This document shows positions 1-59,874 of a stretch of DNA of 64,000 nucleotides, one piece after another. Made by a program: the position numbers and the translations under genes. The stretch spans positions 34,340 through 98,339 of the forward strand of contig JBCFAY010000012.1 in the NCBI GenBank assembly GCA_038562375.1. Direction: 5' to 3'. The number at the start of each line of letters is the position of its first letter. The stretch's first letter is position 1. The stretch comes from Bacillota bacterium. Its GTDB lineage: Bacteria > Bacillota > Clostridia > Christensenellales > CAG-138. The notes under the pieces were generated by a model. The model was not told where the DNA came from, searched no databases, and saw only the letters and a program-made list of their open reading frames with translations.

Positions 1-74
1 CGTTCGGCGGTTGCATTTTTGGCGGACACGACGCATTTGAAGCCGCGCAGATCATGAAAAAAATTCTTCGATAA
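1..74 (+). CDS. 3' end of an ORF that starts upstream of the window; the tail FGGCIFGGHDAFEAAQIMKKILR resembles the C-terminus of a cobalamin-binding corrinoid protein
   Basis: Frame 3 is open from the window edge to TAA at 72-74, just upstream of the RBS of the MtmB-like gene. Only 23 residues are visible, so the family call is weak. Confidence 0.3.
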   Translation, partial: FGGCIFGGHDAFEAAQIMKKILR

Positions 75-89
75 AGGAAGGAAGACAAC

Positions 90-1487: not shown

Positions 1488-1978
1488 CGAATGCCGAAAG
1501 GCAACACGGATGAATGCGTGATTCGGTGAAAGGATAAGTCTTCCGAGCCGATGGAAGTAGCATGATCCCGTGCTACCTATGTTTTCAGTTGTGGTTGGAG
1601 ATTTTTTTGTGCAAATGATCTTCCTGTTGCAATATTAAGAGCCAACCCCGTATACCTATTTCTGTTAACGTGAACACGATTTTTGCAGTACCCTTAATAT
1701 GTGCTTTATTTATGTGTGGATATTCAAAAGGGTCGGAAGCGTTATAGTGTTGCTGTAAAACAGGCCGCGGCACACGGAAATCCTTGGTTAAGCTTGCTTG
1801 CCGGGCAGTGGGAAATTCGATCCGTGGGATGCTGCGTCCAACGCGTGTGCATACGGTTTCATTGGTGTTCAGAGGTTATCTAGTTGTGTTCAAAGCCTTA
1901 GATCAAACGATGGTCGCAACGCTTGAAAAAGCGGAAACATAGCGGCGCCCCCAATACTATTTTAGGAGGATGACATTC

Positions 1979-3169: not shown

Positions 3170-3278
3170 TTTAGTAACATGCCGCCGGAGTGTCCAGAAC
3201 GGAACTCCGGCGGCACGATCCGGCGCTGGAACAATCTATTCAGATCTTGTTAAATTTCGAGAGAAGTGGGTGGTGTAG

Positions 3279-6946: not shown

Positions 6947-6954
6947 CAATTTGC

Positions 6955-7650
6955 ATGATCCGCTTTTCGGGGCTCGATATCGACGAGCTGTTCATCGAGA
7001 GCTCCGGGCTTTACGACCCCTCGCAGATCTGCGACATACTCGATAAAATCGGCCCGCATCTCGCGCGGCCCTACGACTATAAAGGGTCGGCCTGCGTGGT
7101 GGACGCGGAGACCTTCCTCGACTACGCCGACGTGCTGCCCGCGCTGGAAAACCCGGTCGCGGCGTCGGACCTGGTGCTCATCAACAAAACCGATCTCGCG
7201 GACGGGGCGACCATACTTGAAGCCGAAGCGCGCGTGCTGAGCATCAACCCCAACGCGCGCCTCCACCGCACGACGTTCGCGCAGATGCCCTTCGAGCATC
7301 TGCCGGGCTCGCCCGTTGAAAAAGGCGGCGAGCGCGCCTGCGTCAATACCGTCCAAAGCCGGCCGGGAAGCTATCTTCTGAGGATGCCCGGCGCCTGCTC
7401 CCGCGAGCGGCTGCTCGGCGCGGCCGAGGCGCTCGCGCCGCACGTGCTGCGCCTCAAAGGCTTCGCGCTTTGCGATGACGGGCCCGTGCTCGTGGAGGTG
7501 GCGGGCCGCCGCGCCTCCGTGCGCCCCGCGCAGCCCCCGGGCGACATTGCGGGAACCCGGCTTGTGATACTCTCGACCGAGCCCGACGCCAAAGCGCTCT
7601 TCGCCGAAATCTGGAAGCGGGCCACCGGCGCGGTCGCGCGGGTCTATTAA
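6955..7650 (+). pseudogene. CobW/COG0523-family GTPase metallochaperone, 5'-truncated (P-loop region missing)
   Basis: Starts at the ...LFIESSGLYDP switch region and has the LINKTDL (NKxD) motif and a CobW C-terminal domain. There is no GxxGxGKT P-loop. An in-frame TAG at 6931-6933 prevents any upstream extension. It begins exactly at the GC-content switch. Confidence 0.7.
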
Positions 7651-7680
7651 GACACAGGGAAGCCGAAGCCCTGCGCCTCC

Positions 7681-7700
7681 CCTTACCTTACCTTACCTTA
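7681..7700. repeat. Pentanucleotide tandem repeat (cctta)x4
   Basis: Read directly: ccttaccttaccttacctta, 41 nt upstream of the MtaA-like start codon. Confidence 0.9.
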
Positions 7701-7741
7701 AACACAGTTTATCCATCCCAAGGAACACATAGGAGGTATTT

Positions 7742-9088
7742 ATGACCGGTAAAGAATTGATCCTCAAGACGTTCCGGCACGAGCCGACGCCCCGCGTTCC
7801 GTGGGTGCCCTTCGCGGGCGTGCACGCCGGGAAACTCAAGGGCTACACCGCGCGCGAGGTGCTCAAAGACGGCGACAAGCTGCTCGACTCGCTCCTCGAG
7901 GTGCACAAGCTCTACATGCCCGACGGCATGCCCGTCGCGTTCGACCTGCAGCTCGAGGCGGAAATTCTCGGCTGCGAGCTCGTCTGGGCGGACGACAACC
8001 CGCCGAGCGTGCTCACGCACCCGCTCGAGGTGGCCGACGAGATCCCGACAAAGCTGGTCGAGCGCACCGACGGGCGCATCCCGCTGGTGATGGACGCCTG
8101 CCGCAGGCTCAAGTCCGCCGTCGGGGATACCACCGCGCTGTACGGGCTGTTCTGCGGGCCGTTCACGCTGATTTCCCACCTGCGGGGAACGAAGCTCTTC
8201 ATGGATATGAAGCGCAATCCCGGGCATGTCACCGCATTGATGGAATATGCGCTGCAAAACGCACTGCGCATGATCGACTGGTACATCGAGGCGGGCGCGG
8301 ACATCATCGCGCCGGTCGACCCGCTCGTTTCCCAGATCTCCCCGACGCATTTTCAGGCGTTCCTCTCGGACGTCTACAAGCGCATGTTCGATTACATCCG
8401 CGAGAAAGGCGCCTTTTCCTCCTTCTTCGTCTGCGGCAACGCGCTTCGGAACATCGAGGTGATGTGCAAGACCGGCCCCGACGGCATCTCCATCGACGAG
8501 AACATCCCGATGGCGACCGCCAAGGCGATCACGGACCCCTACAACATCTGCATCGGCGGCAATATCCCGCTGACGACCACGATGCTCTTCGGCAACCAGC
8601 AGGACAATATGAAATTCGTCGTGGATATGCTCGACAGCGTCGACCGGCACAACCTGATCGTGTCTCCCGGCTGCGACATGCCCTACGACATACCTTTCGA
8701 GAACACCATCGCCGTCGCCGAGACGGTGCGCGACATCGAGAAATACCGCGAGCTGATTAAAAACTACGAGTCGGCGGACGATGGCGTCGACGTCGAACTG
8801 CCGGACTATGACAACCTGGAAAGGCCGCTGCTCGAGGCGATGACGCTCGATTCCGCCTCCTGCGCCGCCTGCACCTATATGTGGGCGATGGTGCTCGACG
8901 CGAAGAAGGAGTTCGGCGACAAGATCGACGTCGTCGAATACAAGTACACCTCGCGCGAGGGCATCGCCCGCTGCAAGAAGGTCGGCGTCGCAAACCTCCC
9001 GTCGCTGTACATCAACGGTCAGCTGGCCTATGCCTCGATCATACCCGGCCACGAGGAGTTGTACGAGAAAATCAAGACGGTACACTAA
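7742..9088 (+). CDS. Uroporphyrinogen-decarboxylase-fold (MtaA/MtbA/CmuA-like) methyltransferase fused to a C-terminal thioredoxin-like domain
   Basis: RBS ataggagg. The N-terminal ~340 aa look URO-D/MtaA-like (RVPWVPFAGVHA..., SPGCDMPYD). The C-terminal ~100 aa carry a CAAC (CxxC) motif and a glutaredoxin/thioredoxin-like pattern. Confidence 0.8.
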   Translation: MTGKELILKTFRHEPTPRVPWVPFAGVHAGKLKGYTAREVLKDGDKLLDSLLEVHKLYMPDGMPVAFDLQLEAEILGCELVWADDNPPSVLTHPLEVADEIPTKLVERTDGRIPLVMDACRRLKSAVGDTTALYGLFCGPFTLISHLRGTKLFMDMKRNPGHVTALMEYALQNALRMIDWYIEAGADIIAPVDPLVSQISPTHFQAFLSDVYKRMFDYIREKGAFSSFFVCGNALRNIEVMCKTGPDGISIDENIPMATAKAITDPYNICIGGNIPLTTTMLFGNQQDNMKFVVDMLDSVDRHNLIVSPGCDMPYDIPFENTIAVAETVRDIEKYRELIKNYESADDGVDVELPDYDNLERPLLEAMTLDSASCAACTYMWAMVLDAKKEFGDKIDVVEYKYTSREGIARCKKVGVANLPSLYINGQLAYASIIPGHEELYEKIKTVH

Positions 9089-9224
9089 GCGCCGGTGATA
9101 TTGGCCGAACCATATCAGCGCTTTTTGGGAAGGGGGAGCCTTAGTTAGAGGAAGGAGACGAAGAAAACGGCCATCTGACGAACGGCGACCAAGCCGAAAC
9201 CAACAATTGAATTTAATGCATCAG

Positions 9225-9260
9225 GTGGCCTTGAACAATCAAGGCCACTAATTTTCTTCT
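9225..9260 (+). terminator. Rho-independent terminator
   Basis: Perfect 10-bp stem gtggccttga/tcaaggccac with a 4-nt loop, followed by a T-rich tract (taattttcttct). Confidence 0.7.
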
Positions 9261-9796
9261 GTTCGACAGAATCCTATCGAAAACCTCATAAGTTTGCCAG
9301 ATCATATCTGCGTTAGCAGTCGATGCGCCTCGCCGCCACGTGAGGGCATCCGAGTTTTATTGAGAGCTCGGCATAATGGCGCGCTCTCCGAATGGGCGCC
9401 TTCGCGTTGGATGGATCGGATATTTCGGATATTGTATGGGCCAACGGCAGTACAATATCAGGCCGGTTCACGCCTATTCCATCAATGTATATACGGTAAA
9501 AACAAAACAGAGGTTCAAGGGTAATCATACCGGGCAGTGGAAGCCATGCAGTAGCAACGGCGACACTGCGGGCGACGAGCCGCTTGATACGATAGTTTTT
9601 ATAGCCGGGTTTACCTTTCCGAGTAGGCCCGGCTTTTTATGTACAAATCACTCCCTGCGAAAAAGTCTAGGTAATGCCGGACTTATTTGCCGTGCCGCAA
9701 AAGCAGACAAATCTGTAGCGGGTTACATCCGTTGTCGCTCTCCGCCGACTTCGTTCCGATTCGTGCATCACCAAAAATCGGAACGGAGGTATCCAA

Positions 9797-10219
9797 ATGA
9801 AAACCATCAATCTGCGGGATTATTACCCGTTTTTCACGTCCGACTATTTTATCGATGTGCCGGACGAGGTTGCCGCCCTCCTGTTGGCCCATACGCGCCA
9901 TGAGGCTGCCTGTCAGCGCCGTACATACCGACACAGGGCACATTTCTCTCTCGACCGGAGCGACGGCACCGAGCATGACATCCTGTTCGTGTCCCTGTCT
10001 CCCTGCGAGATATACGAACGAAAAGTCACAAACGAACATCTCTATGCAGCCATCGCCAGCCTGCCGGACAAGCAGGCCAATCGGATCTATGCACGCTTTT
10101 TCCTTGGATTGAGCATTGGTGAAATCGCACGATCAGAGGGGGTATCGCCTGCCAGTATTTCCGGTTCTATAGCCCGCGGGCTGAGAACATTGGAAAAATA
10201 TTTGAAAAAATCTCTATAA
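9797..10219 (+). CDS. Small sigma-70 region-4-type (Tn916 Orf7-like) transcriptional regulator
   Basis: RBS ggaacggagg. C-terminal HTH LSIGEIARSEGVSPASISGSIARGLRTLEKYL. This family usually sits next to xis/int in Clostridia ICEs. Confidence 0.8.
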   Translation: MKTINLRDYYPFFTSDYFIDVPDEVAALLLAHTRHEAACQRRTYRHRAHFSLDRSDGTEHDILFVSLSPCEIYERKVTNEHLYAAIASLPDKQANRIYARFFLGLSIGEIARSEGVSPASISGSIARGLRTLEKYLKKSL

Positions 10220-10763
10220 CCCCTAAAAAACGGCCCTAAAATGTCCTGATTAGTGAAGGGATATTTTCCTCTCCTGCGAGCCTTCAAAACTTCATATCCA
10301 AAAATGAAATGGCTTATGAAGGACTGGCTTTCCCCCCTCGGGTGGACCTTGAAAACTGAATATACGATATTTCAGGACATTACCCGCGCGGCTGTAAAAG
10401 GCAAGCGACATAAGAGACGGCGCGACGACGGCGAAAGCATGAGCGATCAACGTGCTCTTAGACCCGGCTATAGCAGGCCGGGCGCGACGACACGCACGGG
10501 AAACAATGGTACTTCCTCACGGCCTCCTAAAGAATTGGGGGGAGCTCTGCGGTATGCGCTTGCCTGGCGAACGGCGGTACATGCGGAGTTATGATGCGGT
10601 AAAGCTGGCCGCAGCCTGAAATATCCCCTCTGCCGGGGGTGCGTGGCAAGTACGGCAGAAAATCGTCACTGTAACTTATGAGCAGGCTTTGCTTTATTAG
10701 CAAAGCCTGCGTATCCCTGCGATGTCGACGCAAAACGACATAGCAACAGACGGGAGGAGTTAT

Positions 10764-10991
10764 ATGAATAACGCTCTTTCTCGGAAAGACGCTTATCGTG
10801 TAGTGTTCAAAGGGTATCCCGATGTTGTAACCGTTGAGCAAATGAGTGAAATGTTGGGGATCAGCAGCAAAACTGCCTACCGGCTCTTAAAGCAAAACAG
10901 AATTGCACACTTCAAAGTAGGCCGAACCTATAAAATTCCGAAGCTGCACATCATTGCGTACCTGAATGTTGCCTCGCTATCTGATGAGTAA
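10764..10991 (+). CDS. xis: Excisionase / MerR-superfamily HTH DNA-binding protein (Xis-like)
   Basis: RBS gggaggag lies 4 nt before the ATG at 10764. Motif VTVEQMSEMLGISSKTAYRLLKQNRIAHFKVGRTYKIPK. Immediately upstream of int. Confidence 0.8.
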   Translation: MNNALSRKDAYRVVFKGYPDVVTVEQMSEMLGISSKTAYRLLKQNRIAHFKVGRTYKIPKLHIIAYLNVASLSDE

Positions 10992-11087
10992 AGCCGCGGT
11001 AACATTGTCAGCTGGATAATGGTCTGGTACACTGTCAACGTCAATGGTAGGTGAATTCAGGCTGTTACCACTAAAGGAGGAAAAACA

Positions 11088-12398
11088 ATGGTAGCAGGAC
11101 ATCTACGAGAAGAGCGGGGCTTCTTTCATATCGTATTGAGTTATACGGATGAGAATGGCAAACGACAAACGCCGCAGAAAAGCACAGGACTTCCTGTAAA
11201 GGGCAATAAGAAACGAGCCGAAGCTATGCTGTTGGAGGCGCGGAAAACCGCTACAGAGGCTTTAGCGGCGGCTCGGGAGCAAAAGACTGAAGCAGTTAAT
11301 AGTGGCGCGAACTCCAAAACAGGCGGAGGCATGCTGTTTACGGACTTTATGCTGAAATGGTTGGAAATTATGAAACCTAATCTTGAACTGACAACGTATG
11401 GCGGATATCAGACTATCATCAAGCACAAAATCAATCCATATTTCACGGAGCATTGCAACGTGACGCTAAATGAACTGGAGCCTATGCACATTCAAGACTA
11501 CTATACTCATGAGCTTACAGAAAATCATTTAAGCGTGAACACCGTGCTGCGTTACCATGCAAATATCCGAAAAGCCTTACAGCTTGCCGTAAAGCTGAAA
11601 TTGATTAAGCACAATCCGGCCAATAGCATCGAAAGGCCGAGGCCGGTTGCGTATAGAAGCAAGCATTATGATGAAAAGCAGATAATGCATTTGTTTTTAC
11701 TCGCAAAGGACCACTGGCTTTTGTTCGCTATTGTTATGGGGGCGTTTTATGGGCTGCGCAGGGGCGAAATCGTGGGATTGAAAAAGGATGCTATCAATTT
11801 CGAGAAAAAGACAATTGCCATCAAGCATACCGTAACAGAAACTTCGGTTGACGGAAAGCACATCATTATCGAAAAGGATCGTCCAAAAACAAAAAAGAGT
11901 TTTCGCACACTGCCCTTGGTTAAGCCTGTAGAATTCTTTGTCCGAGGACTCATGGAGTATCACGAACAAAACAGAAAAGTCTGCGGGAAATCGTATTGTA
12001 CGCAGTATCTGGATTATTTGTACCGTGATGAACTGGGGCACAGAATTACGCCTGATGCGTTGACGCGAAAGTTCCCGCTGTTCCTGGAGGAACACGGGTT
12101 GCCTCGAATTCGACTGCACGAACTGCGGCATAGCTGTGCAAACCTGCTGTATGCAAAAAAGGTTTCACTGAAAGAAATCCAGGGTTGGCTGGGTCATAGC
12201 ACGATTGCGACAACCGCAAATATTTATCTGGATTTTGACTACAATAACAAAATTGATTCCGCGAATTCGATTATCGGGGTATTCGGATTTAATCAAGAAG
12301 AAGCCCCTCAAACCGCCAAAGCAGCGGAAATCGGGGCTTTTTCCATGGTGCCGCTGGCCGGACTCGAACCGGCACGGGAATTACCCGTCAGATTTTAA
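11088..12398 (+). CDS. int: Tyrosine site-specific integrase (Tn916 Int-like)
   Basis: RBS aaaggagg. Catalytic motifs GLRRGE, HELRHSCANLL, GHSTIATTANIYLDF. The last ~17 codons overlap the tRNA-Leu gene on the opposite strand. Confidence 0.92.
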   Translation: MVAGHLREERGFFHIVLSYTDENGKRQTPQKSTGLPVKGNKKRAEAMLLEARKTATEALAAAREQKTEAVNSGANSKTGGGMLFTDFMLKWLEIMKPNLELTTYGGYQTIIKHKINPYFTEHCNVTLNELEPMHIQDYYTHELTENHLSVNTVLRYHANIRKALQLAVKLKLIKHNPANSIERPRPVAYRSKHYDEKQIMHLFLLAKDHWLLFAIVMGAFYGLRRGEIVGLKKDAINFEKKTIAIKHTVTETSVDGKHIIIEKDRPKTKKSFRTLPLVKPVEFFVRGLMEYHEQNRKVCGKSYCTQYLDYLYRDELGHRITPDALTRKFPLFLEEHGLPRIRLHELRHSCANLLYAKKVSLKEIQGWLGHSTIATTANIYLDFDYNNKIDSANSIIGVFGFNQEEAPQTAKAAEIGAFSMVPLAGLEPARELPVRF

Positions 12399-12430
12399 GT
12401 CTGATATGTCTGCCATTCCATCACAGCGGC
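12346..12430 (-). tRNA. tRNA-Leu (anticodon UAA), class II with long variable arm, encoded CCA
   Basis: Manual cloverleaf: acceptor GCCGCTG/CAGCGGC, anticodon stem-loop TCAGA-CTTAAAA-TCTGA, variable arm CGGGTAATTCCCGT, T arm GCCGG-TTCGAGT-CCGGC, then A-CCA. Confidence 0.9.
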
Positions 12431-15540: not shown

Positions 15541-17403
15541 TTACGGATTCTTTCGCATCGGGCGGTATGTCAACGCCCTTGACGCGTTGAGTATCGCGAG
15601 CACCGCGACACCGACGTCCGCGAACACCGCTTCCCACATGTTGGCGACTCCCAATGCGCCAAGCAGCAGCACCAGACCCTTCACGCCGAGCGCGAACCCG
15701 ATGTTCTGCCGCGCGATGGAAAGCGTCTTGCTCGAGATCTGCACGGCGGCGGCGATCTTTTTAGGATCGTCGTCCATCAGCACTACGTCCGCGGCCTCGA
15801 TCGCAGCGTCCGTCCCGAGCGCGCCCATCGCGATGCCCACGTCGGCGCGCGCAAGCGTCGGCGCGTCGTTGATGCCGTCTCCCACGAACGCGAGCACGCT
15901 CCTAGCCGGCTTTTTGCTTAAAAGTTCCTCGACCTTTTCAACTTTGTCCGCGGGCAAAAGTTCGGCGTACAGTTCGTCGATGCCGAGCGAACCTGCGACG
16001 CTCTCGGCCGCTGCCTTTGAATCGCCGGTGAGCATCACGGCCTTTTTCACGCCCAGCTTGCGGAGCGAAGCGATCGCCTCGGCAGCGCCTTCCTTGATCT
16101 GATCCGAAATGACGATGTGCCCCGCGTACTCGCCATCCACCGCAACATGCACAACGGTTCCGGTCAGTTCGCATACTTGCCAGGCGACGCCGATAGAATC
16201 CATTAGTTTGCCGTTGCCGACGGAAACGCTCAATCCGTCCACGCGTGCCGACGCGCCGCGCCCCGCAAGCTCCTGAACGTCCGCAACGCGGGAGGAGTCG
16301 GCCTCCCCGCCCCAGGCCTCGAGCAGCGAGCGCGAAATCGGATGATCGGAAAAGCTGTCCGCGAGCGCGGCGAGCTCCAAAAGATGCGCTTCGGAAATCC
16401 GCTCGGGATGCACCGCAATCACGCGGAACGTACCGTACGTGAGCGTGCCGGTTTTGTCGAACACCACGGTACGCACCCTTGCAAGGGCCTCCAGGTAGTT
16501 GCCGCCCTTGATGAGTATGCCGTTCTTGGACGCGCCGCCGATGCCGCCGAAAAAGCTCAGCGGCACTGAAATCACCAGAGCGCACGGACAGGATACCACG
16601 AGGAAAATCAGCGCGCGTTCAACCCACACGTTCCACGAGCCCGAGAAGAACAAGGGGGCGATCACCGCGAGCAGCGCAGCGCCCGCGACGACTCCGGGCG
16701 TATAGTACCGTGCAAAGCGCGTGATAAAGCTTTCCGCCTTTGCCTTTTTATTCGCGGCGTTCTCGACGAGGTCGAGGATCTTCGCCACCGTGGATTCGCC
16801 GTACCCGCGCGTAACCTTTACCCGAATCAGCGCGCTGATGTTGATGCAGCCGCTGATCACGTCGTCCCCAGGGCCCGCCTCGCGCGGAAGCGACTCGCCG
16901 GTAAGCGCGGAGGTGTTGATCGTCGTAGATCCCTCGACGACCGTGCCGTCGAGCGGGATCTTCTCTCCCGGTTTTACGGCAATGATCTCGCCGATTCCGA
17001 TCTGTTCGGGATCGACCTTAACGAGCTCGCCGTTCTCCTCGATGTTCGCATAATCCGGCCGGATGTCCATCAAGCTCGCGATGGAACGGCGCGACCGCCC
17101 GATCGCGTAGCTTTGAAACAACTCGCCTACCTGATAAAAGAGCATCACCGCGACGCCCTCGGGATACTCGCCGATCGAAAAAGCTCCGACCGTCGCGAGC
17201 GCCATCAGGAAGTTCTCGTCGAAAACCCGGCCCCTCGCGATGTTGCGAAGCGCCCTGAGCAGCACGTCGTATCCGGCAATCGCATAGGGGATCAAGAACA
17301 GTGCAAGTTTGACGGGGCCCACGGTATCAATTAGGATCGCGGCAAGAAAAACCGCAGCCGCGATCAAAATTCTGTATAGATCCACCCGGAATTTTTTAGT
17401 CAT
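15541..17403 (-). CDS. P1B-type heavy-metal translocating ATPase (Cd/Zn/Co type), no N-terminal HMA domain
   Basis: CPC motif (VSCPCALVIS), DKTGTLT, GDGINDAP, TGES. Confidence 0.93.
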   Translation of the reverse strand: MTKKFRVDLYRILIAAAVFLAAILIDTVGPVKLALFLIPYAIAGYDVLLRALRNIARGRVFDENFLMALATVGAFSIGEYPEGVAVMLFYQVGELFQSYAIGRSRRSIASLMDIRPDYANIEENGELVKVDPEQIGIGEIIAVKPGEKIPLDGTVVEGSTTINTSALTGESLPREAGPGDDVISGCINISALIRVKVTRGYGESTVAKILDLVENAANKKAKAESFITRFARYYTPGVVAGAALLAVIAPLFFSGSWNVWVERALIFLVVSCPCALVISVPLSFFGGIGGASKNGILIKGGNYLEALARVRTVVFDKTGTLTYGTFRVIAVHPERISEAHLLELAALADSFSDHPISRSLLEAWGGEADSSRVADVQELAGRGASARVDGLSVSVGNGKLMDSIGVAWQVCELTGTVVHVAVDGEYAGHIVISDQIKEGAAEAIASLRKLGVKKAVMLTGDSKAAAESVAGSLGIDELYAELLPADKVEKVEELLSKKPARSVLAFVGDGINDAPTLARADVGIAMGALGTDAAIEAADVVLMDDDPKKIAAAVQISSKTLSIARQNIGFALGVKGLVLLLGALGVANMWEAVFADVGVAVLAILNASRALTYRPMRKNP

Positions 17404-17415
17404 ATCCTATCCTGC

Positions 17416-17634
17416 CTACCGTTGAATCGCGCAGTCGGGTTCGATGCGCTTGCAGACTTTTTCGATCTGATCCATAATTTGTTCAAACCGCTCTTCGGGC
17501 GCTTCCACGGTCAGCTTTTGCGCCATAAAATTGACGTTCGCATCCTGTACGCCGTCGAGCTTGCGAATCGCACATTCCATCTTTGAGGCGCAGTTCGCGC
17601 AATCGAGATCGACCATCTTATAATGCTTTCTCAT
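17416..17634 (-). CDS. Small heavy-metal-associated (HMA) domain protein
   Basis: 72 aa, with VDLDCANCASKMECAIRKLDGV replacing the usual MxCxxC site and a ferredoxin-like HMA pattern. Lies between the ArsR and ATPase genes. Confidence 0.75.
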   Translation of the reverse strand: MRKHYKMVDLDCANCASKMECAIRKLDGVQDANVNFMAQKLTVEAPEERFEQIMDQIEKVCKRIEPDCAIQR

Positions 17635-17654
17635 CGTGTCCCCCACCCAATAAA

Positions 17655-18017
17655 TTATTCTAAAACATGCTCCATGCCCTGTTCGAGTATCGTCTCCACG
17701 TGCGCGTCTGCCAGCGAATAATACACCGTTTTGCCGTCGCGCCGAAATTTGACGAGTTTGCTCTGCTTCAAGGAACGCAGATGATGGGAAATCGCCGACT
17801 GCGTCATTCCCAATAGCTGCGCGATGTCGCACACACAGATCTCTCCTGCCGAGAGCGCGTACAGTATTTTGATCCGCGTCGTATCCCCGAAGAGCTTATA
17901 CAGTTCCGCAAGGTCGTAAAGCGCATCGTCGCCCGGCATTCTCCGCGCCACGCGTTCGATGATCTGATCGTGGACGCACGTGCTCTCGCACCGTTCGACG
18001 CCGTAGATATCCTGCAT
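17655..18017 (-). CDS. ArsR/SmtB-family metal-responsive repressor
   Basis: RBS ggaggt lies 7 nt before the ATG at 18017. ELYKLFGDTTRIKILYAL...EICVCDIAQLLGMTQSAISHHLRSLK is a typical wHTH with metal-site Cys. Confidence 0.9.
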   Translation of the reverse strand: MQDIYGVERCESTCVHDQIIERVARRMPGDDALYDLAELYKLFGDTTRIKILYALSAGEICVCDIAQLLGMTQSAISHHLRSLKQSKLVKFRRDGKTVYYSLADAHVETILEQGMEHVLE

Positions 18018-18658: not shown

Positions 18659-19171
18659 TCAATCGAGCACCAGCGACGGCGCGGCGTACACGCGGGCGCC
18701 GAGCTCCGAGTCGAGCATGTATAGGCCTTTACCGTCGTGTCCGAACAGCTCGAAGCGCTTGATGTTCTCGTCCGCGTTCTTCTCCTCTTCTCCCTGCTCC
18801 TTGATGAACCAATCGAGGAACTGGCAGGTGCGGTAATCGCGATCCGCCTGCGCCTCGGCATAGATGGCGTTGATCAATGCGGTCACATACTTTTCATGCT
18901 CAAACGATACCTGCAAGGGTGTGGAAAAATCGGAGTAAGCCTTGTCGGGCGCGGCGATCTCGGCGAGCATCGGGCGCACGCCGTTGTTCTGCAGATATTG
19001 GGAGAACAGCATCGCGTGATCCCGCTCCTCCTGCGCCTGAACCTTATACCAGTTGCCGAATCCGTTCAAATTGGCATCATAATAGAAGTTTGAAATATCA
19101 AGATAAAGATACGCGGAGTAAAATTCCTTGTTGATTTGTTCGTTGAGCAGCTTTTTGACCTTTTCGTTCAT
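18659..19171 (-). CDS. ftnA: Non-heme ferritin
   Basis: RBS aaggagga. LNEQINKEFYSAYLYL...QEERDHA...FEHEKYVT are ferroxidase-centre motifs. Confidence 0.92.
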   Translation of the reverse strand: MNEKVKKLLNEQINKEFYSAYLYLDISNFYYDANLNGFGNWYKVQAQEERDHAMLFSQYLQNNGVRPMLAEIAAPDKAYSDFSTPLQVSFEHEKYVTALINAIYAEAQADRDYRTCQFLDWFIKEQGEEEKNADENIKRFELFGHDGKGLYMLDSELGARVYAAPSLVLD

Positions 19172-42705: not shown

Positions 42706-42821
42706 TCAGGGCGGCGGATGGATCCGCCGGATTCTCCCGATCCATCCGGCTGCGCCTTTATAGCATGAAAACAACGCCGGGCGACGCGCCCGGCGTTCGG
42801 TCCCCTATGGAACTGCGGACC

Positions 42822-43109
42822 TTAGCACCAGCCGCAAGCGCCGCTCCAGTGCCAATGAACGCAATTGCTGCACCCGCAGTTCGCGCCGCAGCCGCAATTC
42901 ACGCCGCAGCCGCAACCGCAGCCGGAATGCCATCCGCAATTCAGATTATTATTGCAATCCCACCATCCGCAGTTTGAGCAGCCCCAGCCGTTCCACCACG
43001 GCGAGAAGCATCCGCCCGGCTGGCAGGAACAAAGATTGTTCGTGTAACCCCTGCCGTAAAAATTGCCGCGAGGAATGCAGGACGCGCCCACATTAAACCA
43101 TGATCCCAT
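42822..43109 (-). CDS. Orphan 95-aa Cys/Trp/Gly/Asn-rich protein (function unknown; possibly spore-associated or metal/thiol-rich)
   Basis: Strong RBS ggggaggtg lies 7 nt before the ATG at 43109. Composition is 18 Cys, 10 Trp, 20 Gly and 13 Asn in 95 residues, with a C-terminal GCGCGCGVNCGCGANCGCSNC run. No signal peptide and almost no charged residues. Confidence 0.7.
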   Translation of the reverse strand: MGSWFNVGASCIPRGNFYGRGYTNNLCSCQPGGCFSPWWNGWGCSNCGWWDCNNNLNCGWHSGCGCGCGVNCGCGANCGCSNCVHWHWSGACGWC

Positions 43110-43141
43110 GAAATCCACCTCCCCGAGAGCGTGTGATATCA

Positions 43142-43169
43142 TATATTATGGCTAAGCGCGCGCAATGGT
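43142..43169 (-). promoter_or_regulatory. Sigma-K-like promoter candidate (AC-17 nt-CATAATATA) for the Cys-rich gene
   Basis: The minus strand reads gatgaAC-cattgcgcgcgcttagc-CATAATATA, matching my recollection of the B. subtilis SigK consensus AC-N16-17-CATAnnnTA. It lies about 33 nt upstream of the ATG. Confidence 0.35.
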
Positions 43170-43309
43170 TCATCCATATATAGAAACTTTTCCCGCGCAA
43201 TGTTTGGAATTGCCCGGATCGCCGTTATCTTAAGGACGCGGATTTCGCGCGCAGCGCAGGCGTCGCCGGCGAATGCGTCTCAGCGTTGCGCAAAAACAAC
43301 ATCGTGCCG

Positions 43310-44281: not shown

Positions 44282-44906
44282 TTGAATCCTCCTGCTGCCG
44301 TTGTGACTAGTATTATACCGTCTATGCCTCGCGGCTTACAAGGTTTATGGCACGCAATCACCTTTCAATCCGTGCTGCGCGCAGGATTTCATGAAACCCC
44401 GAACATCCCCCGCCTCGAAGCATCCCAAAATTGCATATCGCCGATATTCCATTGCAGCCCATGCTTATGGCGCGCAAATACTCACATAGATTTAACTTGG
44501 GGTTTACGCGGCCGAAAGTATAGTATATCATTATCTTGTTCGGGTTTTCCAGCCGGGCGGCATTGCATGTGATAATTGGCGCTTTGAGCCGCGCAATGCG
44601 GAACTCTGCGCCGTATCGGTGCGCTTGCGCTCGGCGGTCGTGGCTCCAATCGGCTGCTTCCCCTATTCGGAAGCGCAGGCGGGCACCGTGTTCCGTTTGG
44701 CCAAATGGGTCTGTCCAAACCGGATTTTGCATACACGGCCGCATCGGTATGCACAATACGAAGAGCAGCCCTCGTGGGATGGCGCAGAACCCATCCCGCT
44801 GCCAGCCACGGGATGATCCGAGCCGTAGAGCGGAGCAGTGTGTAAAATCTGCGGCGTGTATTTGTTCGCACTTACCGCCGCTTATGCGTATGTAGTTGGG
44901 AGGATT

Positions 44907-45926
44907 ATGAGCCAGATAGCTTTTATTATCAGCATTGTTCTCGTACTTGGGGTGGTATTTGTCAACGGTTGGACCGATGCGCCCAACGCCATCGGCACCG
45001 CGGTGGCGACGCGTGTGCTCCCGCCGCGATTCGCGATCCTGATGGCGATGGTGTTCAATTTTCTCGGCGTGCTTTTGATGACGCTCGTGAGCGCCGAAGT
45101 AGCCGAAACCATCACGCAGATGGTGGATTTTGGCCCCGATAAAGGCGAAGCGCTCATCGCGCTGACGGCGGCGATGTTCGCCATCGTCGTCTGGGCGGTA
45201 GCCGCATGGTGGTTCGGCATCCCGACCAGCGAGAGCCACGCGCTGATCGCCGGACTCACGGGCGCGGCCATGGCCATGGGCGGTTTGGACGCCGTACACA
45301 TGGATCAGTGGAGCAAAGTGCTCATCGGCCTCGGCATCTCCTCGGTGCTCGGCTTCGGCGGCGGTTATTTCATCGCGCGCGTGCTCGAGAACGTATGCCG
45401 AAAATTCCCCCGCAGCAAAACGCGCGGTCTTTTCGTGAAGGGACAAGCAGGTTCGGCCGCGCTGATGGCGTTCCTGCACGGCGCGCAGGACGGGCAGAAA
45501 TTCATGGGCGTGTTTATGCTCGCGCTCTTCCTGAACGGATATGCCTCGCAAAATGCAAGCGGAACGTTTACCATCCCTCTCTGGGTGATGCTGCTCTGTT
45601 CCGTCGTGATGGGGCTCGGCACGCTCTTGGGCGGTCAGCGCATCATCAAAACCGTGGGCATGGATATGGTCAAGCTGCAGACCTATCAGGGGTTCGCGTC
45701 CGATCTGGCGGCGGGTCTCTGCCTGTTGTTTTCGACGCTCTTCGGCATCCCGGTTTCCACCACCCATACCAAAACCACCGCGATCATGGGCGTGGGCGCA
45801 AGCCACAGACTTAAGAGCGTAAACTGGAAAATCGCTTTTGAGATGATCTATGCCTGGGTGCTGACATTCCCGGGCTGCGGCTTGATCGGCTATCTGATGG
45901 CCAAGCTGCTCGTCGCTTTATTCTAA
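44907..45926 (+). CDS. pit: Inorganic phosphate transporter, PiT family
   Basis: RBS gggagg. FVNGWTDAPNAIGTAV, and the repeated PVSTTHT motif late in the protein. Confidence 0.9.
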   Translation: MSQIAFIISIVLVLGVVFVNGWTDAPNAIGTAVATRVLPPRFAILMAMVFNFLGVLLMTLVSAEVAETITQMVDFGPDKGEALIALTAAMFAIVVWAVAAWWFGIPTSESHALIAGLTGAAMAMGGLDAVHMDQWSKVLIGLGISSVLGFGGGYFIARVLENVCRKFPRSKTRGLFVKGQAGSAALMAFLHGAQDGQKFMGVFMLALFLNGYASQNASGTFTIPLWVMLLCSVVMGLGTLLGGQRIIKTVGMDMVKLQTYQGFASDLAAGLCLLFSTLFGIPVSTTHTKTTAIMGVGASHRLKSVNWKIAFEMIYAWVLTFPGCGLIGYLMAKLLVALF

Positions 45927-48594: not shown

Positions 48595-49182
48595 ATGGAT
48601 ATCTTTGAGCTGTTTCTCATCGCGGTGGGCCTTTCCATGGACGCGTTCGCCGTCGCCATCTGCAAGGGGATGTCCCTGCGCAGATCGGGTTTTTTAGACG
48701 CGCTGACCGTCGGCCTGTACTTCGGATTTTTTCAGGCGGCGATGCCCCTCGCCGGCTTCCTGCTCGGCTCGAATTTCCGCGAGATGATCGAGAAATTCGA
48801 TCATTGGATCGCGTTCGGGCTGCTGCTGCTCATCGGGATCAATATGCTCCGCGAATCCTTCGAGCACGCCCGCTGCTGTTCGCCGGAAAAGGTTAAGCCG
48901 AACGCTTCTTCGCTCGGCTTCGGCGTGATGCTGATGCTCGCGCTCGCAACGAGCATCGACGCGCTGACGGTCGGAATCACATTCGCGTTTTTGCAGGTCC
49001 AAATACTCCCCGCCATCGCCATCATCGGCATCATCACGCTGTTCATATCGATTTCGGGCGTGTATATCGGCCGGCGATTCGGCAATCGCTTTCAAGCGAA
49101 GGCCGAGCTCGTCGGCGGAATCCTCCTGATATTGATCGGCGTCAAGGTGCTCTTAGAGCACCTCGGCATACTCGCATTTTGA
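48595..49182 (+). CDS. mntP: Manganese efflux pump MntP
   Basis: RBS aggagga. LSMDAFAVAI, plus a second SIDALTVG repeat. Confidence 0.92.
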   Translation: MDIFELFLIAVGLSMDAFAVAICKGMSLRRSGFLDALTVGLYFGFFQAAMPLAGFLLGSNFREMIEKFDHWIAFGLLLLIGINMLRESFEHARCCSPEKVKPNASSLGFGVMLMLALATSIDALTVGITFAFLQVQILPAIAIIGIITLFISISGVYIGRRFGNRFQAKAELVGGILLILIGVKVLLEHLGILAF

Positions 49183-54769: not shown

Positions 54770-55162
54770 TTAGGGCGTCCGCAAATCGGACTGATCGGCG
54801 CAGCAGGCGCATTTCCCATAGAACAACAACGAGTATCCCTCCGGGATCCAGCCCTTCGGCGGCTGGATGTGAGGCGCCCCTCCGGGGAACCGCGCATCCA
54901 CATCCACAACCTTGCCGCAGCCGCTGCACATCATATGCTGGTGCTCGTGCAGGCTTCCGTCAAACCGATCGGGATGATCCGCAAGTGAAATTTTTTTGAT
55001 TTTCCCAATGCTCTCCAAATAATTCAGGTTGCGATACACAGTCCCCAGGCTGAGGTTCGGGTCCCTCGGCTTTAACGACACATAAACATCGTCAGCCGTC
55101 GGGTGTAAACCGCTCGCCAAGACCGCCTGGAGAATGCTTTCGCGCTGTTTTGAATAGCCCAT
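54770..55162 (-). CDS. Fur-family regulator (PerR-like)
   Basis: wHTH N-terminus, HEHQHMMCSGCGK and a C-terminal CACC metal site. The start at 55162 follows ggtgat (ORF open to 55174). Adjacent to rubrerythrin. Confidence 0.88.
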   Translation of the reverse strand: MGYSKQRESILQAVLASGLHPTADDVYVSLKPRDPNLSLGTVYRNLNYLESIGKIKKISLADHPDRFDGSLHEHQHMMCSGCGKVVDVDARFPGGAPHIQPPKGWIPEGYSLLFYGKCACCADQSDLRTP

Positions 55163-55174
55163 ATATATCACCAT

Positions 55175-55310: not shown

Positions 55311-56084
55311 ATGCCTATCAACAAAGTGGAGATCTGTGGTGTAGATACGTCCAAACTCCCGGTCATGAACGCTAAGCAGAGCCGCGAGCTGCTCATGAAG
55401 GTCAAGACCGGCGACCCGCAATCGCGTGAAGAGTTTATCCGCGGCAACCTCAGGCTCGTTCTTAGCGTGATTCAGCGTTTCAGCAACCGCGGGGAGCAAA
55501 TGGACGATCTGTTTCAGGTCGGCTGCATCGGTTTGATCAAGGCGCTGGATAATTTCGATCTTTCGCACAACGTGCGCTTCTCGACCTATGCCGTACCTAT
55601 GATCATCGGCGAAGTGAGAAGATACCTCCGCGACAACAACGCGATCCGCGTCAGCAGGTCTTTGCGCGATACCGCGCACAAGGCTATGCAGGCGCGCGCA
55701 AAACTCATGGAGGAGAACTCGCGCGAGCCAAGCCTCGCCGAGGTCGCCAAGGAGCTTGAGATCCCGGAGGAAGACGTCGTGATGGCGCTCGACTCGATTC
55801 AGGATCCCATTTCGCTTTTTGAACCGATCTACCACGACGACGGCGACGCGATCTACGTGATGGACCAGGTCAGCGACGACAAGATCAACGACGGCATGTG
55901 GCTCGATACCATCGCCCTTTCCGAGGGGATGCACCGCCTGACCGAGCGCGAGAAGCACATCCTGATGCTGCGCTTTTTCGAGGGAAAAACGCAGATGGAG
56001 GTCGCAAACTCCATCGGCATCTCGCAGGCGCAGGTTTCGCGCCTTGAAAAAAGCGCGCTCAAGCACATGAAGAAATACGTGTGA
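55311..56084 (+). CDS. sigG: Sporulation sigma factor SigG
   Basis: NKVEICGVDTSKLPV, GNLRLVLSVIQRF, FDLSHNVRFSTYAVPMIIGE and GISQAQVSRLEK are near-identical blocks to B. subtilis SigG as I recall it. Confidence 0.9.
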   Translation: MPINKVEICGVDTSKLPVMNAKQSRELLMKVKTGDPQSREEFIRGNLRLVLSVIQRFSNRGEQMDDLFQVGCIGLIKALDNFDLSHNVRFSTYAVPMIIGEVRRYLRDNNAIRVSRSLRDTAHKAMQARAKLMEENSREPSLAEVAKELEIPEEDVVMALDSIQDPISLFEPIYHDDGDAIYVMDQVSDDKINDGMWLDTIALSEGMHRLTEREKHILMLRFFEGKTQMEVANSIGISQAQVSRLEKSALKHMKKYV

Positions 56085-56378
56085 ATTGTAAGCGCGGCAA
56101 CGCCCGCCTGTGGTTTTGGATACCCCGTCCCACGCTTGTAGAATATGCGGACCCTACTGTAAGAAGAAAGCAATTTATAAAAACTGCAAACATCGGTATA
56201 GGATAAACCTACGGTACAATATCCGTGGGTTTTTATCCGTCATCACGATAAAGGCAAGACACCGGCAACCCCGTCAAGATCAATCACGCCGACCTTCCGA
56301 TGGCCCGCGCCGTTTTGACAAATGTACCCCGACAATGTTTCATTGCATCCCACGGCCGGTTGTTTTAGAATTAAAGCC

Positions 56379-58454
56379 ATGAGACGCAAGACGAAAACCG
56401 ATATCGTGTTTTTTGGCGGCGACGCCGCGATGCTTTCCCTCGCCCAGAAAGTCCTGGAGCGGATCCGCGATTTATTTCATTTGTTCATCTGTATGGTACT
56501 TTCCGAGTACCTGCTCTTCAACATCGTCTTCGGCGGCGCGCTCTACCTGATGGGCCAGGTTTGGCTCGTCTTCTCGCGCCTGTACGGAAAGCGCTATATC
56601 GCCGCGCTTCCCCCTTCCCTCAAGGCGCAGGGTGTGGGCATATTCATCGTCTCCGTGCTCTTGAACATCGCGCTTTTGATCGTCTATCCCTCTATTGCCA
56701 AGAGCACGAACTTCATCCTCCTGCTGCTGCTCGTTCTGCTCTCCTTCGTGCGCCAGTTCTCGGCGGCGTTCGTCGCAGGATGGAAACTCTCCTCCCGTAT
56801 CGTAAAAGCTGCGTTTTTGTTCGCCGTGCACGCTGCGTTCACGGCGGTGCTGCTGTTTTTGCTCTCCGGACATGTGGAGCACGCACAGCTGATCACCGTC
56901 GCATGGCTCCTTGGCGCGCTTTCAATATTATCTTCCCTCCTCGAATCGCTTTTGCCGCCGCCCTCGCCCGAACCGCCGGCGGAGGTTCCCGAGGGTACGC
57001 TGCTTGAGGCGACGTCCTACCGCATCTACAATCGCATGACCGCGAACGTGATGATCGCGCTGAACCTTTCGCTGCTCGCCTACGTCTGCTACCTCCGGTT
57101 CCAGCCGCTGCAGCCGCCGCTGCAGAGCTTTTTGTCGATGTGCGCGTGGATGATGTTCCTGGGCGGCTTCACCGCTCTCTGCTACGCGTTCCTCACAAGA
57201 AAGGTCGTCACGAAATACGATAAGCCGTCGCTGTTCGCGTTCGGGGGCGTACTCTGGACGCTTGCGACAGTCATCAGCTATAACCGCATTCTGGGCAGCG
57301 GGCCGCTTGAATCGATCCTCACCAACGCGCTCTGGGGCAGCGGCCTCGCTGCGATGCTCGCCATCATCATCAGCCTCGGACGGGACATCAAAGCCGTCGT
57401 GGAGCTCGGGCTCGCCCCCGCCGCAGCCAAGGCCTACGAACGCAACACAAGCGTGATGATCGAGTGGTCGCTCCTGCTCTCCACCATGCTTATGCTCGCG
57501 ATGTTCACCGTATCGAGCTTCCTTGTAGACGGAAAGCTCGACCGCATGGACGCGATGCTCGGGATGCAGGACTTCATGCGCACGGTGATGATGCTGCTGC
57601 CGATGGCATTCGTGCTCGCGGCGCTTTTATACGCCTTGATGCAGCCGTTGGATCGCAACGTCGCCAACAAGATCAAGCTCTATGCAGAGCAGTTCAGCAA
57701 AGGCCTGCCGAATCCTTTGCTCAAGCGCAGCCTGCAAAAGCAGCTGCTGAATACGAGCAAGCGCGTCTCCTACCGCCTGCTGCGCATCTTTTTAAGGCCG
57801 TTTATGCCCTGCAAGGTCATAGGGCGGGAACTCGTCGACGTTTCGCGCGGGCCGGTGATATTCGTATGCAACCATCTCGAGGTCTATGGGCCGATGATCA
57901 CCAACCTGTACATGCCATTCTACTTCCGCCCCTGGATCATCTCGCAGATGCTCGATCCAAACGACGTGGAGGAGCATCTCAGGCCGGGCGTCAACCGCGT
58001 GTTCCGTTTTCTCTCCGAGAAAGCGCGGGCGCGGCTGTGCAGGCGGTTCGCGCCGCTGATGAAGCACATCATGGACGCGACCGATCCGATCCCCGTCTAT
58101 CGCCAAAGCGGCCGCGGCATCATCAAAACCATGCGCCTGAGCGTCGACGCGATGGAATCCGAGGACAACATCCTGCTTTTCCCCGAAAACTCCACCGCGG
58201 AGGGCGAGCCGGGCGTCTACCGCGAGAGCGGCGCTTCCGCGTTTTACACGGGTTTTTGCACGCTGGCGGAGATGTACTATAAGCGCACCGGAAAAGCCAC
58301 GGTGTTCTATCCGGTCTACGCGAACAAAAAGCGGCGCACGCTGACGTTCGGCCCGGGGCTCGCGTATGACCCGAACAACGAGCGAAACCTTGAAAAGCGG
58401 CGCATCGCCGAAACGCTGCACGAATGGATGAACGATCAGGGGGAAAACGCATGA
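56379..58454 (+). CDS. Large polytopic membrane protein with a C-terminal PlsC-type acyltransferase domain
   Basis: About 440 aa of TM segments, then VIFVCNHLEVYGP (HX4D-like region, here NHLEV) and LLFPENSTAEG. The start is uncertain (weak RBS). Confidence 0.7.
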   Translation: MRRKTKTDIVFFGGDAAMLSLAQKVLERIRDLFHLFICMVLSEYLLFNIVFGGALYLMGQVWLVFSRLYGKRYIAALPPSLKAQGVGIFIVSVLLNIALLIVYPSIAKSTNFILLLLLVLLSFVRQFSAAFVAGWKLSSRIVKAAFLFAVHAAFTAVLLFLLSGHVEHAQLITVAWLLGALSILSSLLESLLPPPSPEPPAEVPEGTLLEATSYRIYNRMTANVMIALNLSLLAYVCYLRFQPLQPPLQSFLSMCAWMMFLGGFTALCYAFLTRKVVTKYDKPSLFAFGGVLWTLATVISYNRILGSGPLESILTNALWGSGLAAMLAIIISLGRDIKAVVELGLAPAAAKAYERNTSVMIEWSLLLSTMLMLAMFTVSSFLVDGKLDRMDAMLGMQDFMRTVMMLLPMAFVLAALLYALMQPLDRNVANKIKLYAEQFSKGLPNPLLKRSLQKQLLNTSKRVSYRLLRIFLRPFMPCKVIGRELVDVSRGPVIFVCNHLEVYGPMITNLYMPFYFRPWIISQMLDPNDVEEHLRPGVNRVFRFLSEKARARLCRRFAPLMKHIMDATDPIPVYRQSGRGIIKTMRLSVDAMESEDNILLFPENSTAEGEPGVYRESGASAFYTGFCTLAEMYYKRTGKATVFYPVYANKKRRTLTFGPGLAYDPNNERNLEKRRIAETLHEWMNDQGENA

Positions 58455-59260: not shown

Positions 59261-59406
59261 AAGTGTACCCAAAAACCGATCCGATCGAGGTCGGGAACGA
59301 CAAAAGCGGCGCTTTCTTTTGTAGACGGATCATGGCAATATGGATTGTACACACAGGAAAATAATGGTATGATAATGGCATCATCCGAATGAAGGGAGTA
59401 TCACAA

Positions 59407-59874
59407 ATGAAAGGCGATCCGAAACTGATTGAAACGTTGAATTCACTGCTCGCGGACGAGCTGACCGCAATCAACCAGTACGTCGTTCATGCGGAGATGT
59501 GCGGGAGTTGGGGCTACGGCAAGCTGCACCGCAGCTTTGAAAAACGGGCGATCGATGAAATGAAGCACGCGGAAAAGCTCATCGAGAGAATCCTTTTCCT
59601 CGAAGGCGTGCCTGTTGTAAGTGAGCTCAAGCATATACACATCGGCAGCGAGGTGCCCAAGCAGGTGGAAAACGACCGTGCCGCGGAAGAGGGCGCCATC
59701 AAGGCGTACAACGAGGCCATCGTGCTGGCGGGCAAGCTGCTGGACTACGCCACGCGGGATGTGCTGATGCAGATCCTCAACGACGAGGATCGTCACATGG
59801 ACGAGATCGAGGAGCTCCAGGATCAGATCAAGCAGATGACGCTCCCCATCTTCCTGACCACCCAGGTAGGATAA
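59407..59874 (+). CDS. bfr: Bacterioferritin
   Basis: RBS gaagggag. MKGDPKLIETLNSLLADELTAINQY..., EMKHAEKLIERILFLEG, DEDRHMDEIE. Confidence 0.9.
   Translation: MKGDPKLIETLNSLLADELTAINQYVVHAEMCGSWGYGKLHRSFEKRAIDEMKHAEKLIERILFLEGVPVVSELKHIHIGSEVPKQVENDRAAEEGAIKAYNEAIVLAGKLLDYATRDVLMQILNDEDRHMDEIEELQDQIKQMTLPIFLTTQVG

Follow-up and report, generated by a model that had tools for sequence, protein, structure and literature searches.

The building of outer spore layers from cysteine-rich proteins that are unrelated in sequence and are stabilised by disulfide bonds is an established design, convergent and recurrent (PMC7333573; bioRxiv 10.64898/2026.09.03.749163). The members with which we compare the gene described here are CotY, CotZ and ExsY of the Bacilli and the SPOCS/DUF3794 proteins CsxA, CsxC and CdeC of the Clostridia, all of them high in cysteine and made late in the mother cell. 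The gene lies in a 64,000-nucleotide (nt) stretch of contig JBCFAY010000012.1 (positions 34,340 to 98,339 of the forward strand; assembly GCA_038562375.1) from a member of the Christensenellales, lineage CAG-138; this whole stretch is called the window below and all positions are counted within it. It is a small open reading frame (ORF) of 95 codons on the minus strand, running from an ATG at 43109 to the end of a TAA at 42822, and it encodes a protein dominated by Cys, Gly, Asn and Trp. Like the proteins just named, it is high in cysteine, and its predicted promoter would place it late in the mother cell as well. There is, however, no sequence or profile similarity to CotY/ExsY or to the SPOCS/DUF3794 proteins (Pfam, E<=10), and the window protein also differs from CotY/ExsY and CsxA/CdeC in being only 95 amino acids (aa) long and of low complexity, with 19% Cys, 10.5% Trp and no predicted fold. 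Another point of comparison is provided by CotC/CotU, CotD, CotG, CotT and YeeK of B. subtilis, short, low-complexity products of sigma-K-dependent stand-alone genes that become cross-linked into the coat. Their composition is biased to Tyr, Lys, His, Ser and Arg, whereas that of the window protein is biased to Cys, Trp, Gly and Asn, and the family scans, the basis of this comparison, gave no match. Functionally, the small protein probably belongs among the known cysteine-rich proteins of the late-sporulation envelope; its composition, size and sequence are new. The reading that we prefer, and to which we assign a probability of about one half, is that it is a late mother-cell product which becomes part of the spore envelope, where its thiols cross-link it.

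A preliminary description of the window, made from the sequence without database searches, had drawn attention to this ORF. Its sequence and coordinates are identical in our analysis, and a recount gives the same composition: 18 Cys, 20 Gly, 13 Asn and 10 Trp, with no Lys and no Glu. There are also 3 Phe, 3 His, 2 Tyr and 2 Arg, and trypsin would produce a fragment of 75 residues with 17 Cys, of a kind overlooked by standard workflows. Given the frequencies in 20 bona fide genes of the window (1.4% Cys and 0.7% Trp), a stretch of 95 residues would contain 18 or more Cys with a probability of 1.9e-15 and 10 or more Trp with one of 8.9e-10. Five C-x-C and three C-x-x-C motifs are present. Only about 55 nt of the ORF are recognised as tandem repeat by Tandem Repeats Finder, so that the bias in composition is not simply that of a microsatellite; this repeat core of the tail (42870-42924) combines 2.6 copies of an 18-nt unit (G-V/A-N-C-G-C) with 3.7 copies of a 6-nt unit (C-G) and encodes CGCGCGVNCGCGANCGC. 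The protein has no hydrophobic stretch, its highest Kyte-Doolittle mean over 11 residues being 1.05, and this is consistent with the earlier statement that it lacks a signal peptide, no dedicated signal-peptide predictor having been run. AlphaFold2, working from the single sequence, reaches a predicted local distance difference score (pLDDT) of 36.4, which amounts to no predicted fold and a model unusable for a fold search. A longer frame of 106 codons would start inside the -10 box of the promoter and has no ribosome-binding site (RBS).

The preliminary description called the protein an orphan. This label has to be dropped, since there is a syntenic orthologue, 80.6% identical and under purifying selection, as well as a large class of related-looking micro-proteins. 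The orthologue was reached through gene order. SigG of the window has two cluster-mates at 90% identity or above, one of which leads to an ENA contig of 43.8 kb whose gene order agrees with that of the window. The proteins of this congener, that of PRJEB19676, are very close to those of the window (93.8% identity for PitA, 92.8% for PhoU-div and 97.7% for SigG). The interval of interest was found through a cluster-mate of the amidohydrolase in three assemblies, P0125 and P0137 being the cluster members that led to the locus. The congener's genes run PBP, KsgA, amidohydrolase, a gap of 650 nt, dehydrogenase and PitA; the gap, which no gene caller has annotated correctly, holds a 105-codon ORF (L193 6944-7261, minus strand) encoding MCLWSNMGATSIPYGNFYGRGYTDGCSCASGGCFSPWGNCGTNGFWGCAGGWGNCGSWWDCNNNLNCGWHSGCGCGCGCGVNCGCGANCGCSNCVHWRWGNGCGW. 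Its product matches the window protein at 75 of 93 positions and keeps 16 of the 18 Cys, 9 of the 10 Trp and 11 of the 13 Asn.

The pattern of divergence is that of a coding sequence. None of the indels that separate the two ORFs (-3, +27, +3 and +6 nt) disturbs the reading frame, while the sole 1-nt indel lies in the leader, upstream of the ATG; since the indels past the ATG are multiples of three, the start codon is fixed at 43109. With a synonymous divergence (dS) of 0.90 and a non-synonymous divergence (dN) of 0.108, dN/dS for the small ORF is 0.12, as against 0.09 for the amidohydrolase, 0.20 for the dehydrogenase, 0.07 for PitA, 0.05 for PhoU-div and 0.11 for KsgA. Over the C-terminal 40 residues (WWDCNNNLNCGWHSGCGCGCG..VNCGCGANCGCSNCVHW) the two proteins do not differ, although 7 synonymous changes lie beneath, save for one extra CG unit in the congener; this unit is the +6-nt indel and falls in the repeat core of the tail. 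Judged by its substitutions, the small ORF is a real gene under purifying selection. That it might instead be spurious, a chance frame in low-complexity DNA, could be argued from its codon usage, for which the log-likelihood is negative in all six frames and does not favour the frame of the ORF (a score that does not discriminate for a composition of this kind), and from the gene callers, which skipped it in the Logan contig discussed below and in three congener assemblies. The dN/dS of 0.12 at a dS of 0.90, the four in-frame indels, the conserved Cys and Trp and the retention of RBS, promoter and terminator refute this explanation, and we give it practically no weight.

The signals that flank the gene are retained with it. 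The preliminary description had reported AC, 17 nt and CATAATATA upstream on the minus strand, and these are present at 43169-43142. They form part of a predicted sigma-K-type promoter (43142-43174, minus strand), which has the -35 element gatgAACC, with its AC at 43169-43168, a 17-nt spacer and the -10 element CATAATATA at 43150-43142. The short 5' leader that follows (43110-43141, minus strand) contains an element GGAGGTGGAT that is kept in the congener and the RBS already pointed out earlier, GGGGAGGTG at 43124-43116, with 6 nt between its end and the ATG. Beyond the stop codon, after 24 nt, begins an intrinsic terminator that the preliminary description had not mentioned (42768-42797, in the minus-strand orientation only), with an 11-bp stem containing 9 G-C pairs, a 3-nt loop and a T-run. 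Identity to the congener is 43% in the distal intergenic DNA after the dehydrogenase stop (43309-43200) and rises to 80% in the 25 nt just upstream of the -35 element (43199-43175, minus strand, beginning GGGAAAAGTTTCTATATATG); it is 73% from -35 to -10 (43174-43142), where the differences are confined to the spacer, and 84% in the leader with its RBS (43141-43110). On the other side it is 33% between stop codon and terminator (42821-42798), 84% in the hairpin and T-run (42797-42768), and 28% from there to the amidohydrolase stop (42767-42706). The predicted promoter, RBS and terminator are thus conserved islands within diverged intergenic DNA, and the 25-nt block at 43175-43199 may be a candidate binding site for a mother-cell regulator. 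The gene stands alone among housekeeping genes, and with its sigma-K-type promoter, GGAGG RBS, 95 codons and strong terminator it is, by all these predicted features, a self-contained single-gene unit.

In both C. difficile and B. subtilis the signature of sigma-K is AC at -35 combined with a -10 of the CATA type, sigma-E promoters having ATA at -35 (PMC3789822). It is the AC at -35 together with the CATA-type -10 that makes the architecture here one of the sigma-K type, and from this promoter sequence, judged by consensus sequences of distant species, we infer that the gene depends on sigma-K. Taken alone, the loose motif AC-N16/17-CATANNNTA, with 3 occurrences in the window where 1.2 are expected, is weak; the comparative evidence makes the promoter call strong. 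A weight matrix derived from 17 promoters of the micro-protein class described below, the window being left out, places the site at rank 1 of 127,936 positions, with 17.8 bits as against 11.6 for the next best (the leave-one-out median within the class is 14.4 bits). The earlier proposal of a sigma-K-like promoter is strongly reinforced both by this matrix from unrelated loci and by the conservation in the congener. SigG is encoded in the window, as had been said (55311-56084, plus strand; TIGR02850, 459.8 bits with a cutoff of 457).

The orthologue was a gift of synteny; profile and sequence searches with the small-ORF protein were empty. Pfam and NCBIfam scans gave 0 families at E<=10, no known coat-protein or bacteriocin family among them, and a sequence search of the PDB gave no match at the same threshold, in agreement with the earlier remark that no characterised protein resembles it. 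A word-indexed search of 5.8e9 protein clusters (15 billion proteins), at E<=0.01 and at E<=10, returned the self-match only, and an exhaustive phmmer search of 1.84e9 representatives returned only the protein itself and two spurious repeat proteins. Exact look-up of the protein found nothing on record, and a metagenome scan with six 8-mer peptide patterns taken from it yielded 144 candidates, 0 of which were confirmed. A scan of 1.3 Mb of related loci showed no other Trp-rich, core-less relatives, Rfam had nothing near gathering scores for the locus, and no curated family, solved structure or paper describing this protein or the micro-protein class was found.

This silence of the databases has identifiable sources. 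A Logan contig shows the locus 100% identical and from the same strain, and is therefore without comparative value; the small ORF is not called on it, and exact look-ups of the flanking genes found this contig only. In four independent assemblies (Logan and ENA; L193, the gap in L194 and L195, and L026/L027) either the ORF is uncalled or a spurious ORF of 47 aa has been called over its promoter (L193 7321-7464, minus strand). Gene finders drop the ORF because the codon-usage score favours none of the six frames, and the protein collection has it only as the window's own record. The lineage is also thinly covered: in a collection of 15 billion proteins the clusters formed at 90% identity by KsgA, fumarase and PtsI have a single member each, and a scan of 185,579 species genomes with the neighbouring dehydrogenase gave no relative above 50% identity and no synteny. 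The lack of database homologues reflects gene calling and sparse sampling of the lineage, and is hence misleading; the orthologue and the micro-protein class are mostly invisible because gene callers pass them over or give them a wrong start.

The micro-protein class was assembled with a DNA motif encoding C-G-C-G-x-N-C-G-C, of which the small ORF contains two copies and chance would predict none in the window. The motif has 31 matches in a viral collection and at least 120 in metagenomes, many of them small ORFs on contigs of 50-69% G+C, in whose products a hydrophobic WIILIIIL core comes between a short N-terminus and a (CGCGNN)n tail. These proteins are 45-70 aa long (L059-L178 from metagenomes, L042/L051 from the viral collection, and P0004-P0123), with a consensus of about MCNNNGFGGGNCCWIIILIILLFCCCGNG..NNCGCDNNCGCC. 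A protein search with one member found 259 proteins at E<=10; 0 of the 120 listed among them have a Pfam domain, and the names given are only 'hypothetical protein', one of them in an Oscillospiraceae metagenome-assembled genome. Pfam and NCBIfam profiles match none of 8 members tested, and exact look-up of 10 members found none in the collection, an outcome that depends on the choice of start codon. The genes use host-preferred codons, stand solitary among housekeeping genes and have an RBS and terminator of their own, and contigs bearing them carry a SpoIIP or Spo0A_C domain. The length of the tail varies by whole repeat units, as in L083 (64 aa) and L143 (58 aa). CATAnnnT[AG] lies within 150 nt upstream in 17 of 19 non-redundant members but in only 5.2% of control windows, and an (A/C)AC element precedes it in register by about 17 nt. 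Where loci were found by protein similarity, the best matrix site is situated just upstream of the gene; it ranks first in L179, L182 and L188 (3 of 6) and at 20-21 of about 32,000 in L187 and L189, where the -10 is AATA and not CATA, and L185 has no scoring promoter site.

The window protein resembles this class of Oscillospiraceae-type Clostridia (for example P0067, P0107, L083 and L085) in composition, with 21% Gly, 19% Cys and 14% Asn as against 22, 21 and 18.5%; in having NCGCG / CGCGxN units in its tail; in being encoded by a stand-alone unit of promoter, RBS, ORF and terminator, with an (A/C)AC-N16/17-CATAnnnT[AG] promoter; and in belonging to no curated family. It differs from the class in lacking the hydrophobic W(I/L)8-10 core, and indeed any W(I/L/V/F/C)6+ core; the maximal Kyte-Doolittle mean has a class median of 3.48. 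The class proteins have a median length of 51 aa, about 3% Trp and about 16% Ile plus Leu, whereas the window protein is about twice as long and has far more Trp (10.5%), and only the window protein has the conserved non-repeat motifs GNFYGRGYT, GGCFSPW and WWDCNNNLNCGWHSG. A hidden Markov model of the class scores 49.0 bits with residues 57-83, the tail of the window protein, while shuffled sequences score 31.6 +/- 4.7 and 0 of 500 reach that value, in a test with some circularity, this motif having also served to find the class. The window protein would seem, then, to be regulated like the class and built partly like it, short of established homology or membership.

Several variants lie outside the usual class architecture. 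A core-less protein of 125 aa, found in human-gut metagenomes (L069, minus strand, start at 1498 on that strand, and L101), carries a Tyr/Arg-rich domain, WEVRRAYQAGYREGFRNGYWAGY, behind its (CGCGNNS)n repeats, and its gene is preceded by gatgCACA-N16-CATATGATA and a good RBS. In L074, L091, L150, L103 and L042/L051 there are two or three hydrophobic cores in 97-147 aa, CGN-rich segments alternating with WIIIL cores; two of these multi-core variants lie on contigs classified as viral, with 38-39% G+C. Several architectures, to judge from the predicted proteins, thus make use of the CGN repeat as a module. A resemblance to the sporulation micro-proteins YjcZ / Tiny_TM_bacill (PF09680, TIGR01732) was set aside: neither the window protein nor any of 8 class members gives a profile match, and the window protein also lacks a hydrophobic segment.

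As we picture it, the small gene would be switched on by RNA polymerase carrying sigma-K in the mother cell, at a late stage of sporulation. The product, having neither signal peptide nor membrane segment, would be made in the mother-cell cytoplasm and deposited on the developing spore, in the outer envelope (coat, crust or an exosporium-like layer). Its 18 Cys, mostly in C-x-C and C-x-x-C repeats, would link it to itself and to its neighbours by disulfide bridges, possibly also by metal-thiolate bridges, and the 10 Trp would give packing or interfacial contacts. We infer such an envelope cross-linker because the gene is under selection, has a sigma-K-type promoter and belongs to a spore-former, and because its product has 18 Cys, is presumably made in the cytoplasm and would conform to a design known to be convergent; sigma-K dependence, localisation to the spore and the chemistry of cross-linking are the presumed steps in this chain. 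As to which of the roles offered in the preliminary description holds, coat cross-linker or metallothionein-like protein, the sequence evidence favours a late mother-cell, spore-associated protein.

A number of considerations weigh against the envelope cross-linker. C-x-C spacing is the classical metal-thiolate pattern and not the classical disulfide pattern, and the complete conservation of the C-terminal 40 residues would be less expected of a loose structural 'glue' than of a metal cluster or a defined fold. The known cysteine-rich envelope proteins (CotY/ExsY and CsxA/CdeC) are larger, folded and unrelated in sequence. The -10 box is common to sigma-K and sigma-E promoters, so that the predicted assignment depends on the AC at -35 and on a consensus from distant species. 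Finally, while the Cys and Gly codons agree with host usage, the Asn codons (9 AAT to 4 AAC) run contrary to the host preference (72% AAC in window genes; members of the micro-protein class use AAC for 81%), which argues against very high expression.

The chief rival, which we regard as possible yet doubtful, is that the protein is metallothionein-like, its C-x-C and C-x-x-C repeats folding round Cu(I), Zn(II) or Cd(II) thiolate clusters to buffer or store metal or to scavenge oxidants. Such a role would be compatible with expression by sigma-K; it partly overlaps with envelope cross-linking and could be a sub-mechanism of it. The defining motifs of metallothioneins are C-C, C-x-C and C-x-y-C (PMC5192482), and residues 64-83 of the window protein (CGCGCGVNCGCGANCGCSNC) can be aligned with the Cu-metallothionein of N. 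crassa (sequence verified as PDB 1t2y) with 11 of 20 identities and 7 of 7 Cys matched, in the exact spacing C-x-C-x5-C-x-C-x3-C-x-C-x2-C. Only 50 of 200,000 composition-preserving shuffles contain this seven-Cys pattern, but it arises almost automatically from any (CxCxxx)n repeat, which points to shared design and not to homology. The block is fully conserved between the two species at the protein level, suggesting a defined cluster or fold. The spacer residues of fungal and plant metallothioneins are small; so are those of this block (Gly, Asn and Ser), which likewise has no Lys or Glu and resembles the plant type-1 C-x-C domains as well as the N. crassa protein in its Cys spacing. Classical metallothioneins, however, have few aromatic residues, whereas the window protein has 10 Trp, 3 Phe and 2 Tyr, plus 3 His; it is also 3-4 times longer, matches nothing in Pfam, NCBIfam or the PDB at E<=10, and has a sporulation-type promoter, with neither an operator responsive to metal nor a metal regulator next to it being identified. 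A P-type ATPase or HMA-domain gene lies within 2 kb in 2 of 7 contexts of class members, a weak hint, but metal-related neighbours are inconsistent across these contexts.

The promoter and the conservation would serve equally well for a sporulation-specific protein of non-structural kind, for example a thiol or redox sink, a CmpA-like small regulator or assembly factor destined for later degradation, or an interfacial peptide that binds the outer forespore membrane through its Trp. SpoVM and CmpA are small mother-cell proteins with roles in assembly (PMC10730256), and the core WIIILIILLF of the class suggests membrane association, the window protein having Trp in place of Ile and Leu. We consider this unlikely, since the sequence indicates no specific partner, 19% Cys is unusual for a regulator, and SpoVM and CmpA depend on sigma-E and are not of the sigma-K type (PMC10730256). 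A role unrelated to sporulation is less likely again: the resemblance of the promoter would have to be misleading, and expression to be due, for instance, to read-through of the upstream dehydrogenase gene or to some other sigma factor. In its favour, a search from the dehydrogenase stop (43310) to the small ORF detected no terminator, a sigma-70-type promoter was likewise not found, and the loose motif occurs, as noted, 3 times in the window with 1.2 expected; on the other side, the externally derived matrix puts this very site first, the -35 and -10 elements are conserved next to DNA that is only 43% identical between dehydrogenase and promoter, and the same architecture lies upstream of class members in unrelated genomic contexts. 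Very improbable, in our view, is a precursor of a heavily modified ribosomal peptide (a heterocycloanthracin/TOMM-like thiazole peptide, a ranthipeptide or similar), an idea for which the preliminary description had itself found little encouragement. Heterocycloanthracin-type cores, like those of the sonorensin TOMM precursors, have Cys-Gly runs as the window protein does, and modified-peptide precursors are sometimes encoded away from their maturases. The window protein, in contrast to TOMM precursors, has no recognisable leader and no match to a Pfam or NCBIfam precursor family at E<=10; the 49 ORFs scanned in the window include no YcaO, SagCD, SagB, radical-SAM, LanB/C/M, protease or export gene, which bears out what had been said of the neighbourhood, and no maturase or exporter occurs in 7 contexts of class members. 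Conservation is highest in its Cys-rich C-terminal part, whereas such precursors usually have a conserved leader and a variable core, and the promoter is of the sporulation type.

Some other features of the window and of the class contexts may be recorded here. The window contains many metal-homeostasis genes (an HMA domain and P-type ATPase, two ferritin-like proteins, MntP, a Fur-family regulator and rubrerythrin; 15541-17832 and 18659-19171 on the minus strand, 59389-59874 and 48595-49182 on the plus strand, 54770-55174 on the minus strand), none of which adjoins the small ORF. In L187 (8001-10224) a class member is directly upstream of a P-type ATPase gene, and in L188 (6729-8747) one is 1.6 kb from an HMA-domain gene. 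The third-position G+C of genes is 0.47-0.60 in positions 1-12400 of the window and 0.70-0.80 elsewhere, with one outlier at 0.84. The genes of this first 12 kb include an MtmB-family methyltransferase (90-1487), a Bmp-type ABC importer (1970-6946) and a CobW-like GTPase (6955-7650), and a phage-type integrase (11088-12398) closes it, so this part may, from its base composition and gene content, be an integrated element. Near sigG lies an ORF of 710 aa (56322-58454, plus strand) with no Pfam or NCBIfam match; the congener has a counterpart of 700 aa in the same position (L190 16317-18419), again with no Pfam match. An ORF of 482 aa (44358-45806, minus strand) was rejected as an antisense artefact of the PitA gene (44838/44907-45926, plus strand), its G+C pattern by codon position being atypical.

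A gene with a dN/dS of 0.12 has thus been missed by standard gene calling in four independent assemblies, with the consequence that databases report 'no homologue' for it, and this is a warning for claims of ORFan status among low-complexity small proteins. Commensal Clostridia that are strictly anaerobic dominate the spore-formers of the gut; their spore envelopes are almost uncharacterised, and most coat proteins of Bacillus and C. difficile have no homologues in these bacteria. The small gene offers a concrete and conserved candidate component, with a predicted sigma-K-type promoter and an extreme content of thiol and indole groups, and it has led to a whole uncurated class of micro-proteins with a common type of promoter. 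Tentatively, the spore-envelope chemistry of Clostridia from the gut and the environment may include a layer that is driven by sigma-K and has gone unrecognised, represented by the window gene together with several hundred micro-proteins of the Cys/Gly/Asn class. Its tiny, spore-borne, thiol-dense (CxCxxx)n modules, whether metallothionein-like or cross-linking on exposure to oxygen, would be reduced or loaded with metal in the anaerobic mother cell and locked by oxidation after release of the spore; such a layer would have stayed hidden since gene callers skip these proteins and tryptic proteomics is blind to sequences with no Lys and almost no Arg.

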